A stretch of 64,000 bases of DNA, taken from positions 24,866 through 88,865 of the IMG/VR virus record IMGVR_UViG_3300050128_000053. One strand, written 5' to 3'. The position numbers and the translations under genes were made by a program. Below the pieces are notes generated by a model, which saw only the letters and a list, made by a program, of their open reading frames with translations, did no database searches and was not told the origin of the DNA. Shown here piece by piece: positions 4,696-63,183 of this stretch; position 1 is the first letter of the stretch; every line of letters starts with the position of its first letter. Origin of the DNA: a virus.

Positions 4696-5310
4696 TCACG
4701 CCGACACCGGAAATGGCTGGTCGGCATAGGGGATTACGGTCACATTCACTCCGGTCGACTGCTGTATCGCGTAGACCTGGCCCAAGAAGAACTCTGAGGA
4801 AACCGAAACGGTGAAGATGTTCCGGTACAAGCGGTGTTGTGAAGCATCAACCGTGTCTCGTCGAACCACCGACACCAGATCAGCTCGACGAACAGTGCCA
4901 TCGAAGTTCGTCATATCCAGACTGCCGAACTCCTCGGGGAACTGCTGGAAAAGAAGAGAGGTGAGCCATCTGTCATCTCGCGGCAGTCGGGAGTACGCGG
5001 CGAGTTGGTATACGAGATTCCAGGGCAGTGGAAAATCGTATGCGGCCAAGGAGAAACCATTCAATGGGGTCGCTGTCTCAGTGTCGTAATCGAGGATGAA
5101 CTCGTTTGCCACCCTGTGCGCCCGGTCAGGAGCGAAAGTGATTTCAGCCAAATCGATGGCAATGTGGGGAAAAGTCCGCTGGCGTTCTTCGGAATCTGGA
5201 AACCTGAAGTACACCGCTATCGGCTTGGCCCGCCCGTCGGCATAGTTGGTGACAGAGAACCCACTGAGCTTCGCCTTAAGGGCGTCGTCTTCATCGAGGA
5301 GCCAGGGCAT
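4696..5310 (-). CDS. Putative tail terminator / tail completion protein
   Basis: Immediately upstream of sheath; FPHIAIDL and PWNLVYQL patterns. Confidence 0.6.
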   Translation of the reverse strand: MPWLLDEDDALKAKLSGFSVTNYADGRAKPIAVYFRFPDSEERQRTFPHIAIDLAEITFAPDRAHRVANEFILDYDTETATPLNGFSLAAYDFPLPWNLVYQLAAYSRLPRDDRWLTSLLFQQFPEEFGSLDMTNFDGTVRRADLVSVVRRDTVDASQHRLYRNIFTVSVSSEFFLGQVYAIQQSTGVNVTVIPYADQPFPVSA

Positions 5311-11550: not shown

Positions 11551-14500
11551 TCAATCGTCGTCGCCCGATGAAAGCGGATTACGACGCTGCGGGATCTTGG
11601 TGCCGGCGGCAAGGGTGGTGAGCTGATTCATGATCGACTGGACCTCGGGAGTATCGGCAAACTGGGGCGGTGGCGCTTGTACACCGGCCGCTGTATTCAC
11701 GCCCGGGCCACCAGCCGAAGACACTCCCCCAGCGTCACCTCCAGGGGCAGGACCAGTCGACGATGGCGATGGCGGATCGGCACCATCAGGCGGTACCCCG
11801 GTAAGCATTGAAATGAGCACCCGGATCTGGGCATTCTGCAAATCGAGAGCACCTTGTTCAAGGGCATCTTGATGCAGTTCGTCCATAAGTTCCTGCAGCT
11901 TCTCGGCTGGATATTGCTCGCCCATGAGGCGCAGGGCCCCGGTCTTGGATTCAAGACCCATGCCCATTTTGAGCTGCAACTCATTGAGAAGGACCAGCAT
12001 GTCAAGCGGTAGCGGGGACTGGAACTCAACCGTATTGCGGTAAGTAATAGGGTCATTCGGGTCGAGAACCGTGACCTGACCCTCTTCAAGCGGTGGATCG
12101 CGCAACGGATCGATCTCGAGCATCTGGGGCAAATATGTCGCCGCCGTGAGGATCAACAACTCATTGAGCATGGCCAGGCCCGAAGACATCTGGGTCGTCT
12201 TTTGACGGAACTTTTGCATCAGCGGAAGGTATTGCAAAGAGAGCGCCACGCCCGATGTATTGCTGATCTGCTGTTCTTGGCCGAGCAAAGAAATGGGCAC
12301 ACCGACCAACTCGTGCATCTTCTCTTTGAGCAGTTCTAAAAACTTGATCGCCTCACCCAACTCAGCCCCGAGAGCGAGATTCTCAATCTTGGCCTTCTCA
12401 TTGGGGATGGACCATACCTTCTTGGGTCCCCGCTCGAGGCTGTTGGATTTCGCTCCCATGATGACTGTGGTGGGGGAGTTCCCGGTCCAATAGGTGTTCC
12501 CATTACGGCTCGCCATCCAAATGCTGTTTTTAACAGTTGGGCACCAGACGGTCACATCTTCAACATCGACCGTCTTTGCAGACTTCAATGTCGACTCAAC
12601 CTCAATCGATTGGCGGCTGTACTTGTCAATAAAGTTGCCTCGGGTATTGACCCGATCCCCCAACATCGCATTCAACATGCGATAACCCTCTTTACGAGCA
12701 CCGTCCTCCTGATACCACGAGCTTCGCTTTTCTGTAATCCAGTGGCCATCTGCATCAACAAGAATCTTCTGAAGCATTCGAGCTTGGGTGTACGTCAGCG
12801 AGTAAATAAAGGACGGGGAGAGTACCTTCTTAGGAGCGACCTCCTCCAAAGTCTCTTTCACCCCTTTACCCAGATACCAGTTATAACAGCCGTTATCCAT
12901 CGGCTTTGCCGATTCAGTAAAGGTGCCTCCACTGCGTTGCCAATACCGCATCAAACGTCGAATAGACCGCACATGGTCAGGGTTCTTTGTCCAACTCTGA
13001 CTTATGGTGATGGAGTGCCAATCATTCGGCCCGCTGTAGGCGTCACAACCTTCCGTGATATACCAGCCAACAGTCTCGACCAACTCGTCGTCCCACTTCG
13101 GCTGAGCTGCAAAAGCAAACGATGTCCCACCCCCCACCACCAAACGAGCATGAGACTTGAAATCAGCTAAAGCTGGTTCCTCAGCATCCCCAATCAAAGT
13201 TCGACCAATACGTCGAGCATCAAGTGGGTAGATCTGCTTTCTCGTCTTACGTTGCTCTACCAACCAGCGATGATTAGGGGTTACGAGGGCGTCAATGTGG
13301 TTAGACAGGTGAACGAGAGATCCCGTGTACGACTTGGAGAAAAGAGACTCGACCGGCTGCCATTCAATCTCATCAGTAGACGAGTTAAGAGTGAGGATCT
13401 CATCTCCAACAGTCAACTCGTCATGCTTCTTCCAACCCTCCGGAGTCAGAGCCAGGGTGGTCTCATCGACACAGGCGTAGTAATTAGTAATGTCCATCAG
13501 CAGGGTGGCCGTCTCGTTGTACGCCCGATTCAAGTCTGTGATGTCTTGGATGTCTGAAAGACCCCAAGGCGATGACGGCACCTTCTTGTTCGCTATGTGG
13601 ACGAAAGGAATGCGCCCCAAGGGGTTCTCTTGATCCTCCACCAACTCGTCATTGATAAAACTCTGCATCGAACTTTCAGTCCACAACTCGGTAAACGAGT
13701 TCCCTGTCCAATACGTACAGCCATTACGACGCGCAAACCAAGTACCAGACGGGGTCGTAGGACACCAAACTTTTCCTTGATAACCCTCCTCAGAAACATG
13801 AAGTCGCCTTGCCGTAATGTAAGGAGAATGGTAGACCGTTACGTTTGCGCAGTTATTCAAATCTCCACGCTTTTCTTTATGCTGCCTCCACCACTCTGAT
13901 GCATCACTCTTCCACCAATGGGTAAAGCTCCTCCTTCCGAGCATGGCAGTGAGCATTTGGAATCCGTCAATGAGGCCTTGATCTTGATTTATGAAGTTCT
14001 CCGTCTCAACAGTCCGCGTAAACCCATCGTGATTCCGAAGAACAGCGTAATGCCCATCCCCCTCAAGAAGGGTGTGGTAGAGAAGCTCTGCTTGATCCAT
14101 TGTAAGAGCACCAAGAAACTCTGGAGTCAGTGTCTTGTTCGGAGCAACTTGGCGAATAAGGTTGCCAATCCCGCTACCAAAATAGAACTGCCGACACCCT
14201 TCATACTTGGTTCCGTCATTGTAATCAGTATTGAGTTCTGTTGCAGTTGCCCCTTGCGCAGAAAATGCCTTCTGAAGATATCTGATGCGAGCGACCAAGT
14301 TGGGATTACTAGCCTCAGACTGACCAATCGTCACAGCAGTCTTTGCCGGAAACTTCGGGTAATGCCCTTCAGTAACAGCCCAACCAATAAGTTCAACAAA
14401 GTCGTCTGAAAAAGTTGGCCATTCTGCAAAGGAGGACAAATGCCCTCCAGCCGCAGCCCCAATAATCTGCTTGTTTGAGTGACCGGTGCTTAACTCTTCC

Positions 14501-16393
14501 GTTGTCATGAACCGAATGGGCCGATTTAAGTTCGGATAGGAATAACCATCCCGATCTCGGTATTCTACGAGCCACCGGTGATTTGGAGTCGAGAGGGCGT
14601 CCATTCGATCGGTCTGCCATCTGGTAAGTGAACCGTCCCAATCGAACACATTGACGGCTGTGTGCTCTTCCCAACGAACCTCGCGCGTCACAGGATCCAT
14701 CACAAGGAACTTGTCGTCGTCCTCGATGTTGTCCCAACGCTTCCAACCAGAAGACGTCAAAGCTTCAGTAGTTTCGTCCTGGCAAAATACTTGGCGGGTT
14801 CCCTCTAATGCCGTCCCCCAAAATCTGTACTTCATCTTGAACCGGATCACCCGAGTCATGTCGTGCGGGTGGTACATAACTCGGGGAAACAGTTCCCCGT
14901 AATGTAAACCGTATTACGGAAAATATTTCCCCTATCTGCACCAGCACCGCTTGCAGGAGTCACCTCCTTCCTGCGTGTGACCCATGTTCCTACAGAGGTG
15001 GTTGGGCACCATACTCGCCCTCTGTAGTGACGAACCGAACGATTCATCCATTTCATGTTCGCTGTCCGACTGTGATGCACCCCAACGGTGCCGTCTCGAC
15101 CTCCAAACTTTCCTCTAGGCGTATCAGAGACCTTTGAAATGCTTCGCTTGCCGAGCATCATGGCAAGCATTTGAAAAGAATCAATCAACCCGAGGTTGTT
15201 CTGGTAAAGACGCTCTCGACCGCCAATGCGTGCTGTCTCCCCATCCCCGTCGAGAAGTGTATTGAAAAGCAGTTCCGCTTGTGGGCGGGTGAGGTTTGTG
15301 AGGAAGCCTGAATCGATTTCCTTTTCCTCATGCAAAACGGCTTGGACCTGACGACCGATTGTTACCGGAAAATACCACTGAAGGAATCCGTCTGACCGCT
15401 CGTAAACAGACCCCTGAAAGTGGTGACAGAGCTTGTCAATACGTTCACAAAAGTCGGGATGAACACGAGGACTTTGCCCAACACAAACAGCCGAAGAATC
15501 AAACCAGCCTTCCGCAGCCACCCAACCCACCAGTTCTACAAACTCATCAGAGTGCTCTGGCATAGTCGGGAAATGCTTTAGTTCGCCGCCCGCCAAGACC
15601 AGAGACCCACCAGTCACCTCATGCAGCTCTGCTGTGGATCGCATCCCCCGGGTTCCACGCTCACCTGAGGTGTCATAGATCCATCGGTGGTCGGCCGTCG
15701 TGGCAGCACTGAAGTTCTTGCTACGCCATTCGTATAGGGGGCCGTCCCAGTCAAAAACGTTGATCCGCCCCACCCGAGACCAAACCAGCTCGTCGGTCTC
15801 GTAGTCAAGCACCAGAGCTTCGTCCCCAACTCTTACCTGATCAGCATTGAGCCAACCACGCTTAGTCAGGATTTCGTTCTCGTCGGCCGGCATGCAGAAA
15901 GCGCTGTTGAGCGGCAGGATGCGGATACGCGCCGGATGCTCATAACCCGCCGGATCGACAAATGATTCTTCGAAAGCCACCTTTACGAACGAGTCGCCTG
16001 ATACAGAAGATTGCTGCATAATTTCCCACATGACAGCGTCTTTGCCTTGGGGCTGATGCTCTTCCCAGATGGTACGCAGAAGCTCGGGGACAATGGCCTC
16101 AGTTGCTTTGGGCGATTTGAAGTAAGTGCCGTTGGTGAGGCAGAAGTTGGTCAAGAAGTCGCTAAAGGCAGCCGACCAGTTGAACGTGAGCTGAGGCTCA
16201 CCGATTTCGCGACGGTAGCTCCAATGATGGCCTAAGTAAAAAGCCCAGTTGCTGGCGTAGCGATTCAAGCGAGGTCCATGAACCTCGATCTAAACTCCTC
16301 ATCCGCTAACTCAACCAGGCCCAAGGGGCTGATGGCAATCGTTAGGTCTGAGGAGGCTGCACGGTAACTGGGTGTCACAAAACTAATGGCCAT
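11551..16393 (-). CDS. Portal protein (SPP1 gp6-like) with three inteins and two 5-nt frame-breaking insertions; about 581 aa mature if repaired
   Basis: Three frame segments: 16393-16292 (MAISF...LVELADEEF), 16286-14880 (EVHGPRLNRY...CFPE) and 14874-11551 (YHPHD...). Portal motifs ENPLGRIPFVHIAN, WGLSDIQDITDLN and ISNTSGVAL. Confidence 0.85.
12478..13473 (-). mobile_element. Intein 3 in portal (332 aa, LAGLIDADG-type)
   Basis: NYYA|CVDETTLALTPEGW...TPNHRW...VWCPTV...YWTGN|SPTT; VGWYITEG and LVDADG. Confidence 0.93.
13699..14784 (-). mobile_element. Intein 2 in portal (362 aa, LAGLIDADG-type)
   Basis: RQVF|CQDETTEALTSSGW...TPNHRW...VWCPTTPSGTW...YWTGN|SFTE; LIGWAVTEG and LLEGDG. Confidence 0.93.
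14892..15896 (-). mobile_element. Intein 1 in portal (335 aa, LAGLIDADG-type endonuclease domain)
   Basis: LNSAF|CMPADENEILTKRGW...TTADHRW...VWCPTT...ITGN|CFPE; LVGWVAAEG and LFNTLLDGDG helices. Confidence 0.92.
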
Positions 16394-16400
16394 TGTGCTT

Positions 16401-17075
16401 TCACCCCCTTCCCGGCTGAGACACGCTTTGCTTCCTAAGCTCACGCACTTTGTTGGCTATTTCCTTGCGCCGTTCCTCCGTGAACGGCCAACAGTTGCTC
16501 TTTCGGATATTGCACAGATCACACGAAGGCATAAGGTTATCAATCGTATGAGTTCCACCTGCTGTCAAGGGCTGATAGTGGTCCCAGTGGAGGTTGTTCG
16601 TCAGGAGCATCTCACAGATGTGACACCGCCCTCCAAACTCTGCAAGACGAAGGTCGAACTGTTCCGCTGAAATGACCTCAACCAAAGTGCCAGCCTTTAT
16701 GGCACGCCGTCTGCTCTCACATCGCTGCGTTGCCTTTCGGCGCTTCTCAGCGATCTCGGGTATTTTGCCTCGCTCAACATGGCGCTTGTAACGCTCTTCT
16801 CGATTGGCCACATGATGGACTCGAAGCCGCTCTTTCGACCACTCAGGGTGATCAATGTGGTATTGGCGTGCCTTAGTGATTTTGGTCGCCGGATCAGCAG
16901 CATAAATCTCTCGTGCTCGCTGATTACGCTTCTCTCGGCGGTTATCGTCAGTAACCTTCACACACAACTTACAACGGGGACGTCGTCCGTCTCTCGATGC
17001 AGAATCCTTGTGGAAATCAGTGAGTGGCTTGGAGATTCCGCACCCCTTGCAAACTTTCACATCAACTGCTGTCAT
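16401..17075 (-). CDS. Free-standing HNH endonuclease with N-terminal zinc finger
   Basis: CKGC...CKLC; CHIC...HWDHYQPLTAGGTHTIDNLMPSCDLCNIRK. Confidence 0.9.
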   Translation of the reverse strand: MTAVDVKVCKGCGISKPLTDFHKDSASRDGRRPRCKLCVKVTDDNRREKRNQRAREIYAADPATKITKARQYHIDHPEWSKERLRVHHVANREERYKRHVERGKIPEIAEKRRKATQRCESRRRAIKAGTLVEVISAEQFDLRLAEFGGRCHICEMLLTNNLHWDHYQPLTAGGTHTIDNLMPSCDLCNIRKSNCWPFTEERRKEIANKVRELRKQSVSQPGRG

Positions 17076-17094
17076 GGCGGCGGTCGTCCGCTTT

Positions 17095-17856
17095 TTACGG
17101 CGTGTCCACTCCGACCTTGGTGAATAGGGCGAACTGAGCAGCACTGATCGCTATGTCTGGGATGCCAGCCGAGGCAAACGCCGATAGATCGGCCGGGTCG
17201 GTGACGTGGGTGGCCACACCGCCCGAGACGAGGAACACCTCGTTGCCCTGCGTGGTGAGGAACATGGTCGGAACCTTTCTGTTTGGGACATGGGTGGGCG
17301 GTGGTGTCGGTGAAGTGAGCCCGAAGAGGGCATCGAAATCGGCCTGAGACCCCACCCAGTGCGAGGCGTCGACCTCCACTGGGATCCCCGGCACACTGAG
17401 TGAATCGGTGTACTGCCAGCAGTCCCCGAAGCCGTAGTCCTTGCCGTAGCTCGCCGGCCAGAGCATGGCCCTGATCCCTGACCGAGGCAGTGTCGAGGCG
17501 CTGCCGTAATCCATCTCTTCATCGGCGCTCAAGTTGAGAGCGACAAGGAAGGCGTTCTGCCACCCACTGTTGGTGCTGGTCTCCGAGTCAAGGATGCGAG
17601 CTTTCGATCCGGCGACTGATTTGAAGTAGGCCGCTTCATCTGAAGCACTGGTGAAATCGGCGAAGTGATAGGCCACGTGGGCGATGTTGTGCGATTCAGC
17701 AAGGGCGGCGGAATCGGAGTAATACGGGTTGGTGTAACCCGTCCCCTGTGTGGCCTTGATGATGAGAGCAAGGACGTTCTCAGAGATCAGAACCCAGTCC
17801 CAATCAGCAGGGTCGCCATTGTCAGAACTGATGTCGATGATGTTTGTTGCCGTCAC
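17095..17856 (-). CDS. GH25 muramidase (endolysin-like)
   Basis: IDISSDNG, IIKATQG, AYHFA, LDSE (DxE) and WQYT...VDAS motifs. Confidence 0.88.
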   Translation of the reverse strand: MTATNIIDISSDNGDPADWDWVLISENVLALIIKATQGTGYTNPYYSDSAALAESHNIAHVAYHFADFTSASDEAAYFKSVAGSKARILDSETSTNSGWQNAFLVALNLSADEEMDYGSASTLPRSGIRAMLWPASYGKDYGFGDCWQYTDSLSVPGIPVEVDASHWVGSQADFDALFGLTSPTPPPTHVPNRKVPTMFLTTQGNEVFLVSGGVATHVTDPADLSAFASAGIPDIAISAAQFALFTKVGVDTP

Positions 17857-62100: not shown

Positions 62101-62642
62101 TAGCCCTGCACCGACATCTTGCGACGGGGCGGCATTCCATACGTGGGCCGCAAAAGAGCAAGTTGTGACGCCCTGTGTTGATCTATTGTCAGGACGGAAG
62201 TAGAACCGCGTGGGGCGAGCTTGCCCTCAACCGTCGGCGTCGGCTGGAAGAACTGCAAAGACGGTGCTGCACGAAGTCCGGTAGTCGCTTCGGCGACCAA
62301 ACCACGCAAGGGGTTCTGCTGTTCAGGCCAGAGGTAGTCCCCCGGGTCAATCCTCTCGCCGAGGTGTACTCCTCTTTGGTAACCACGCTGGTTGATACGG
62401 GACTTGAGGGAATCGAAGAGGCGGTCCCCGCGTCGACTTGTAATTGTCCCGGGTCAAAGGTAGCCATCGGGATAGCTGGCTTCTGGTGTCCTGTTGTACA
62501 TCATCCGCCGGGCATCCAACACTGATCTAACCCACGGTTGGGGAGGCATTGATCCAACAGTTGCGCTTGGATTCATTGCTCCTGGGGAACCAGGAACATA
62601 GGTCTGTGAAAACCCAACACCTCCAGTGTTACTTCCGGCCAC
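62100..62642 (-). CDS. Conserved phage protein interrupted by an in-frame TGA within a probable 6-nt insertion (62451-62456)
   Basis: One frame reads MAGSNT...YPDGYL*PGTITSRRGDRLFDSLKSRINQRGYQRGVHLGERIDPGDYLWP...; both halves are otherwise intact and the stop overlaps the next ATG. Confidence 0.75.
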
Positions 62643-63183
62643 TTGGCATCACCTCCTTCCGATTCCTCTCGACAGTGCGAACTCGGTGGCAGTTTGCACA
62701 AACCACATCGCACTTCATGATCTCTTCCAACAATGCAACCCAACCAAATGAGGCACCTGATCGGATGTCAGCAACCTTCAGCGTACCGGGCAAGTGGTCA
62801 AAGTCCAAAGCGGCCCAGTGCTCGTTGTATCCACAGTCGGCACAGCCCTTTTCTATTTTGTAGGCCCGAACCCAGGCTTTGCGCTGGGCTCCTGATTTCC
62901 CAGGAGTAGATGAAGCTCGACCCTGGACATGCGGCGTGCCATATTTGCGATTCAACTTGTAATGTCGTGAACAGAAGCCGCCTCTGGCTTCTCGCAATGG
63001 GCACTCTTCTACACCACATTTACGGTCACCAGGCTCCGCTACAACGGGCCGCTGTCGATCAGCTACGCACTCTTTGCACCAACTGGCATAACGGTTGGTC
63101 TTGTTGATCCAGGCGAAATCGTTCAACATTTTCAGCTCGCCACACTTGGTGCACTTCTTGCGCACTTTCACGATGATGGTCAT
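62629..63183 (-). CDS. Free-standing HNH endonuclease with zinc fingers
   Basis: CTKC..CKEC, C...C...CSRHY, CADCG...ALDFDH...KCDVVCANCHRVRT. Confidence 0.88.
   Translation of the reverse strand: MTIIVKVRKKCTKCGELKMLNDFAWINKTNRYASWCKECVADRQRPVVAEPGDRKCGVEECPLREARGGFCSRHYKLNRKYGTPHVQGRASSTPGKSGAQRKAWVRAYKIEKGCADCGYNEHWAALDFDHLPGTLKVADIRSGASFGWVALLEEIMKCDVVCANCHRVRTVERNRKEVMPSGRK

Follow-up and report, generated by a model that had tools for sequence, protein, structure and literature searches.

Natural translational bypassing is known from few systems, namely gene 60 of phage T4 and its homologs, one yeast mitochondrion, and, as a candidate, the gene for the terminase of Streptomyces phage Hau3. 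The stretch of viral DNA analyzed here, hereafter the window, comprises 64,000 nucleotides (nt) and corresponds to bases 24866-88865 of the 88,865-bp IMG/VR record IMGVR_UViG_3300050128_000053. On its minus strand lies the portal gene of an uncultured soil phage, in which the first 34 codons and the codons that follow are in different frames, separated by the five bases AGATC. From the comparisons set out below, these bases are probably a micro-gap that ribosomes would cross by a +5 hop, passing over an immunity mark left by a nuclease cassette and producing one full-length portal precursor.

Among the systems closest to this locus is the MobA element of T4-like phages. Excerpts of a preprint describe an element that moves as a unit, made up of an HNH gene, a short stretch that replaces the homologous part of the target, and the bypass cassette; its bypass insert shields the element from nicking by MobA itself (bioRxiv 10.1101/2022.08.31.505936). 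For Streptomyces phage Hau3 and two prophages, the sections of PMC10732093 drawn on here report UUA-led gaps of 7 to 10 nt in the large terminase gene, present in 3 of 100 terminase genes, with a junction peptide found by mass spectrometry in Escherichia coli. The gaps were interpreted there as regulation through bldA, and those same sections make no mention of homing endonucleases (PMC10732093). Engineered precedents also exist, as synthetic stop-hops and +5 and +6 hops were obtained in E. coli by Weiss et al. in 1987, according to a 2016 recoding review that, in its passages on hopping, knew stop-hops only from synthetic constructs and no natural in-frame stop hop (PMC5009743).

The window's portal gene begins at ATG 16393-16391 in a frame that reads MAISF...LADEEF (MAISFVTPSYRAASSDLTIAISPLGLVELADEEF) and provides portal codons 1-34 (16292-16393), as placed by homolog alignment and by synonymous and nonsynonymous counts against an IMG/VR relative, L008. 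The last of these codons, TTT 16294-16292 (Phe34), is the proposed take-off codon. When translated onward, the same frame adds RSRFMDLA and ends at TGA 16267-16265 (tail and stop, 16265-16291), for a total of 42 amino acids if no hop occurs. The body of the protein continues in the frame of a 470-amino-acid open reading frame (ORF), EVHGPRLNRYASNW from GAG 16286-16284, which is closed upstream of the gap by TAG 16292-16290, overlapping the TTT. Between the two segments lies AGATC (16287-16291), as delimited by alignment with Streptomyces phage pSt2308, with relatives, and with independent contigs; it holds AGA 16291-16289, the A-site codon, and ATC 16289-16287, the proposed landing triplet. 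The resume codon GAG (16284-16286) opens EVHGPR in both sequence and alignment, and portal segment 2, mature residues 35 to about 164, extends from there to the first of the gene's inteins (15897-16286; translation and tblastn). One hallmark of bypassing is found here: two out-of-frame segments on one mRNA jointly encode one conserved protein and are split by bases that homologs lack. Some form of nonstandard decoding is predicted to be needed to join the portal frames.

When the portal DNA was aligned with that of pSt2308, it showed one 5-column gap, GAG TT[.....]C GAG, and nothing else. A tblastn search with the pSt2308 portal against 72 IMG/VR relatives of the N-extein returned frame breaks only in the window and in L009 and an in-frame stop in L008, and the series DEEF-EVHGPR-...-NRY-ASNW was unbroken in 69 of the 72, the exceptions being L008, L009, and partial cases. 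Contigs from public runs were also aligned to positions 15900-16700. A 763-nt contig from an independent permafrost run of another study (X2) matches 15913-16675 without a gap and at 0 differences, a contig from a peat run (X3) spans 16172-16322 with 0 gaps, and two contigs from metatranscriptome libraries, X11 (16111-16370) and X12 (16238-16454), retain all 5 bases. Because the gap bases recur in independent contigs from DNA and RNA libraries, assembly error is excluded; since RNA-library contigs may include DNA and contigs mask rare variants, removal of the bases in a minority of RNAs is argued against only.

Selection acts on both sides of the gap. Over the 33 codons after the start, the window and L008 differ at 22, with 21 of the differences synonymous and 1 nonsynonymous, and the ratio of the two kinds of change in this N terminus equals that among uninterrupted portals. 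Immediately after the gap, EVHGPRLNRY is preserved through synonymous changes. Both flanks are therefore under strong purifying selection in their own frames, which means that translation must cross from one frame to the other within these few bases. A sequence-only reading of this DNA had claimed most of this arrangement, namely a frame from ATG 16393 that stops after 42 amino acids, a hidden 34-codon portal N terminus, a 5-nt insertion whose omission joins the frames, and an HNH gene ending just before the portal. Sequence and translation agree with the 42-amino-acid stop, and the frames meet exactly at DEEF followed by E(V/M)HGPR in the pSt2308 alignment. The N terminus proved genuine by homolog alignment and purifying selection, and the insertion is real when set against pSt2308 and the IMG/VR relatives. 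Read mapping had been suggested as a check, and the public-run contigs all keep the insertion with 0 gaps. The HNH gene terminates at TGA 16403-16401, 7 nt short of the portal ATG, and its adjacency supplied the lead to the gap's probable origin.

The window's portal is one of many with extra bases at this position. Two pattern scans of IMG/VR and one scan of a metagenome collection, directed at inserts between DE and EV, found at least 17 further alleles interrupted at the DE-EV site, from about 16 data sets; counts from these scans are lower bounds. In the metagenome-collection scan, 4 of the 121 matches listed were portals, and 1 of these alleles was new. By script parsing, all 18 listed alleles restore DEEF/EVHGPR by skipping +1 (1 allele), +5 (2), +6 (3), +7 (5), +8 (5), or +9 (2) nt. 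The codon that follows the last decoded codon is TGA in five of the listed alleles, TAG in five, TTA in six, TGT in one, and AGA in the window only. Across the 17 listed hop alleles, the triplet that precedes the resume codon is the take-off codon again, or a synonym of it, in 13 (TTC...TTC, GAA...GAA, GAG...GAG), and the landing is near-cognate in the other 4 (ATC in the window and L008, CTC in L198, TAC in L132). Interrupted portals otherwise align over their full length, and the Phe codon remains TTT or TTC in every listed allele. Neither random damage nor internal initiation explains so rule-bound a shared architecture. Within this family the window is an outlier: its A site is occupied by the rare sense codon AGA, and its landing triplet, ATC, is only near-cognate. 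The other +5 allele, L274, has the exact repeat TTC[TG]TTC, and L118 has TTT-T-GAA at this site, a +1 site of the release-factor-2 type. The window allele, TTT-AG-ATC, looks like the 6-nt in-frame stop-hop allele of L008 (TTC TGA ATC) minus one base; such a loss would turn an L008-type in-frame stop into the overlapping TAG and leave AGA in the A site.

Other regularities of the gaps, at this and other positions, concern their spacers and stops. In 10 of 15 cases the base that follows the in-gap stop is C (TAGC, TGAC, TAAC), and C after a stop codon is a weak termination context in bacteria. The spacer TTACC recurs behind three different take-off codons, GAG, TTC, and GAA. A TTA-led clade (L142, L194, L200, L202, and L078) has the spacers TTACC, TTAGC, TTAA, and TTAT and no upstream nuclease where the flank is present.

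Directly upstream of the portal, on the minus strand, is an ORF for an HNH-type endonuclease (16401-17144), assigned by Pfam (HNH, 26.5 bits against a cutoff of 21.4) and by PHROG matches to endonuclease VII and HNH families; its true start is likely an internal ATG at residue 24. Homologs of this nuclease stand at the same position in L101, L133, L112, L132, L201, and L195. We compared the 16 interrupted loci that had enough upstream sequence with 61 controls that had no insert at the site and at least 900 nt of flank. Of the interrupted loci, 11 of 16 had a nuclease gene immediately upstream, whereas homologs of five nuclease queries were found there in 0 of 61 uninterrupted ones (Fisher P = 6.5e-10, uncorrected for relatedness). 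The 11 nucleases are seven of the window-HNH homolog type, a Pfam HNH in L198, an Endonuclease_7 in L118, and phrog_374 HNH proteins in L173 and L197. At L132 (3058-3920) portal codons 1-31 occur as a first copy joined in frame to the start of the HNH ORF. Downstream of this ORF are a ribosome-binding site and then a second, diverged copy of codons 1-34, which leads into the gap and the remaining portal sequence. Judged by this duplicated N terminus, the cassette inserted at codons 32-35, where the gap lies, and the locus has the look of a snapshot of cassette insertion. A relic second copy of the N-peptide like that in L132 was sought upstream of the window's HNH gene, and none was found. In three related contigs, L004 to L006, a distant HNH homolog (4704-5189, 31% identity) lies directly downstream of an uninterrupted portal.

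Sequence elements around the gap suggest how it might be crossed. A Shine-Dalgarno (SD)-like GAGGAG (16295-16300), which also forms the two Glu codons, lies 0 nt from the take-off codon and 5 nt from the landing triplet. This hexamer is enriched in gap alleles: of the 15 whose gap follows F or FE, 13 have it, compared with 32 among 91 distinct alleles that are uninterrupted (P = 3e-4, without correction for relatedness). By the contig's own codon usage, AGA is the rarest Arg codon, at 4.3 per 1,000 or 92 uses in about 21,000 codons. The sequence-only reading had pointed to both elements, and both find some support: the GAGGAG is where it was placed, at 16300-16295, with the comparative support just given, and the notion of a slow A-site codon gains from the family, whose other 17 listed alleles all place a stop, TTA, or TGT at that point. 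Its third signal, a 7-bp hairpin with a CATG loop (16270-16287), fared less well. The hairpin exists and appears in the minimum-free-energy fold, but it does not stand out as a signal, because its pairs, which involve the EVHGPR codons plus the final base of the gap, are mostly dictated by those codons. Out of 7 possible pairs, gap alleles form a mean of 5.3 and uninterrupted alleles 4.8 (one-sided P = 0.03, without phylogenetic correction); all 7 also form in 5 of 91 uninterrupted alleles, and the fold of the 71 nt at the gap is not unusual (z-score, -1.0). With so marginal a difference in pairing and so ordinary a fold, we rejected the hairpin as a specific stimulator. A decoder tRNA with an unusual anticodon loop was likewise rejected, as no tRNA or transfer-messenger RNA gene was found in the window or in the 88.9-kb contig, which is an estimated 63% complete.

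We propose that the ribosome would pause with TTT (Phe34) in the P site and the rare AGA in the A site, while GAGGAG pairs with the anti-SD sequence of 16S rRNA at a strained spacing of zero. If the mRNA then slid 5 nt forward, the SD spacing would become 5 nt, as at an initiation site, and ATC would enter the P site, where tRNA-Phe could pair with its second and third positions. With GAG in the A site, decoding would resume as EVHGPR, and the junction peptide would be AASSDLTIAISPLGLVELADEEFEVHGPR. The portal is present in 12 copies per virion; as only these 12 are needed, a modest hop efficiency could suffice. The gap itself would have arrived as part of a mobile cassette consisting of the upstream HNH homing endonuclease, the portal 5' end, and the gap, and its extra bases would disrupt the nuclease target in the element's own genome while leaving the conserved protein unchanged. 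The association of gaps with nuclease genes is observed in the loci above; the function as an immunity mark is what we infer from it.

Set beside T4 gene 60 and MobA, the portal locus shares an HNH-family nuclease gene inserted at a conserved gene and codistributed with the gap, an element that carries its own copy of the target flank (here seen in L132), and a stop or putatively slow codon after the take-off codon with an SD-like element near. In both systems some relatives keep the gap and have lost the nuclease. The ribosome-skipped noncoding insert that protects against self-cleavage would have its parallel in the portal gap as well. As for differences, the portal gap is 5 nt instead of 50 nt, is unrelated in sequence to the gene 60 cassette, and is without an evident take-off stem-loop or nascent-peptide signal. 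Its target is a portal rather than a topoisomerase, and this target is not divided between two proteins. Actinobacteria are the probable hosts, and the window's landing triplet is unlike its take-off codon. Judged on sequence, the portal gap would work like the gene 60 cassette but is no member of it.

The byps of Magnusiomyces capitatus mitochondria are 27-55 nt long. As excerpted from the recoding review, they resemble the portal gaps in being many short inserts in essential genes, with an unused A-site codon and with take-off and landing codons that do not always match (PMC5009743), whereas they are GC-rich, mitochondrial, and without a link to nuclease genes. The gaps of Hau3 and the prophages were compared through the main text of PMC10732093. 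On that basis, the two sets share short inserts in a highly conserved stretch of an actinophage structural or packaging gene, a proposed hop, a rare codon in the A site, and an SD-like sequence 5' of the gap. They differ in that the gene here is the portal, in that the first gap of the window is led by AGA and not UUA (a second gap in the same portal does start with TTA), and in that the portal has a whole allelic series at one site where the Hau3 type is reported from 3 of 100 terminases. In the synthetic E. coli hops, as the review summarizes them, peptidyl-tRNA re-pairs a few bases on, over a stop or hungry codon, with sizes of +5 and +6 as in some portal alleles; those hops were engineered and of low efficiency, whereas portal hops would occur in nature and an essential gene would depend on them. 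Our literature search found no published bypassing in a portal gene.

Several points weigh against a +5 hop over a cassette-borne mark. For every portal allele, the hop is a prediction from sequence. The only cultured relatives of the portal N terminus are five Streptomyces phages, pSt2308, GiJojo, LuckySocke, Alone3, and BRock (6 records), and all of them are uninterrupted over the first 100 portal residues, where a gap was sought; with no cultured phage of this portal family carrying a gap, the viability of such an allele is without proof from any isolate. The contigs X11 and X12 from RNA libraries may reflect DNA carryover, and the N-peptide may travel with the cassette, which would somewhat weaken the argument from selection. 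The control count of 0 of 61 rests on five nuclease queries only, and the statistics ignore relatedness. No nuclease was detectable upstream of the gap in 5 of the 16 loci (L142, L194, L200, L202, and L196), so the link to a nuclease is not obligatory. As a sense codon used 92 times in the contig, AGA may cause only a weak pause, and the landing ATC pairs with the anticodon of tRNA-Phe at only 2 of 3 positions.

Four other explanations were weighed, and even taken together we regard them as unlikely. The portal could function as two noncovalently associated polypeptides, a 34-amino-acid N-peptide (here 42) and a body that initiates at ATC through GAGGAG. The spacing GAGGAG-N5-ATC is ideal for initiation, L008 has GAGGAG-N6-ATC, and in the resume frame of the window's second gap an ATG arises. 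Still, AUC is established as a very poor initiation codon. In 16 of 18 listed alleles the resume codon is preceded by TTC, TTT, GAA, GAG, CTC, or TAC with no ATG, GTG, or TTG following, and none of 17 listed alleles uses GTG for the Val that follows the gap. Initiation also leaves unexplained why in-frame and frame-shifting inserts share the repeated-codon architecture, and we find a split portal improbable. We give no more credence to a dead or defective allele, whether a repair scar or a mutation that inactivates the portal in a genome that is decaying or relies on a helper, or an error-built consensus. It would account for the lack of any isolate with such a gap, for the window's breach of the family rule in its sense A-site codon and nonmatching landing, and for a portal that also bears three inteins and a second gap. 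It sits poorly with identical bases in contigs from at least three independent studies, with an otherwise intact portal gene and intact neighbors, with the 21-to-1 excess of synonymous changes upstream of the gap, and with rule-bound architecture in 17 other listed alleles from about 16 data sets, which is unlike random damage.

A longer hop is more doubtful still. Peptidyl-tRNA-Glu could move 11 nt from GAG 16297-16295 to GAG 16286-16284, giving a portal that lacks Phe34 and one Glu, and the GAG...GAG pair is perfect and available in L008 as well, at 12 nt. In that case the A-site codon would be an ordinary TTT (12.4 per 1,000), at which no pause is expected, and all other listed alleles restore the full DEEFEV, with the Phe codon kept as TTT or TTC. 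A conventional frameshift (-1 or +2), or loss of the 5 bases from the RNA, is hardly credible. The required change of frame is indeed -1/+2, and a T TTC CCC heptamer occurs near the second gap, but not near the first. There, as the sequence-only reading had recognized for a -1 slip at the TTT, the target frame is closed by the TAG that overlaps this codon; we found no slippery heptamer in the interval from this TAG to the stop of the zero frame, and shifting further on would replace invariant EVHGPR residues. As for RNA-level removal, no homopolymer run is present for transcriptional slippage, and the RNA-library contigs keep the 5 bases, with the proviso that contigs mask rare variants.

Beyond the window, we lean, by a narrow preference, toward a broader proposal. 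A family of 1- to 9-nt gaps in the portals of soil and freshwater phages, and in at least one other gene, may have been spread by HNH cassettes as marks of self-immunity and may be read by short hops of ordinary ribosomes, including natural in-frame stop-hops and SD-positioned sense-codon hops onto nonmatching triplets. If so, bypassing over short distances depends on a much smaller set of signals than T4 gene 60 implied, many phage genes called "frameshifted" in databases are intact, and the logic of a nuclease plus a bypass has a second, independent case. The allelic series would offer a natural and tractable set of hops (+1 and +4 to +9) in one conserved context, within which the window allele tests whether an internal Shine-Dalgarno sequence sets the landing site when the landing codon is mismatched. 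Gene callers split or truncate gap genes, as illustrated by orphan portal N-terminal "proteins" in a public collection. Those public protein sets hold 32 such ORFs (P0002-P0033) of 34-74 amino acids that are cut portal N termini, the cause of which may be a micro-gap, an intron, or a contig end; they end after DEEF, EVH, EVHGP, NRY, NRYAS, ASNW, WAFY, and other residues, and some of their contigs exceed 100 kb.

Portals of relatives are also interrupted elsewhere, and several hold two gaps. At six other positions we found gaps built on the same plan, TAC[TG]AAC in L009, CGA[TTAC]CGC in L142, TCT[TGAA]TCC in L173, AAT[A]AAC in L197, TAT[T]AAC in L198, and TGG[TGACTA]AGG in L118. Four near-cognate landings change only the first base, from T to A (TTY to ATC, TAY to AAC twice, and TGG to AGG). 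A third micro-gap of the window, on the minus strand of another gene, is an in-frame TGACCC (62451-62456) within YPDGYL/GTI, a stretch that is contiguous in 40 of 40 IMG/VR relatives. This gene starts just past a Cys-rich, nuclease-like ORF (62629-63183), for which a Pfam HNH search gave no match at E 0.01.

Downstream of segment 2, still on the minus strand, the window's portal gene is interrupted by intein 1 (14892-15896; C...GN/C), recognized from translation and from a hole of about 1 kb between the tblastn segments q36-166 and q168-201; an intein is found at the same site in L045. The remainder of the gene (11551-14874; translation and tblastn) includes two further inteins of the C...GN/S kind, making three in 11551-15896, so that the portal precursor would require three splicing events and two hops. 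The second of these hops would cross a 5-nt gap, TTATG (14875-14879), identified from relatives and located four codons past intein 1, between GAG (E) and TAC (Y) of CFPE/YHPHD, where the closest relatives have NSAF/CFPEYHPHD. TTA, the least-used Leu codon of the contig (3.1 per 1,000), would stand in the A site. The landing triplet ATG, which lies in the resume frame, matches the take-off codon poorly, and the T TTC CCC heptamer just 5' of this second gap would permit an alternative -1 shift that adds two residues.

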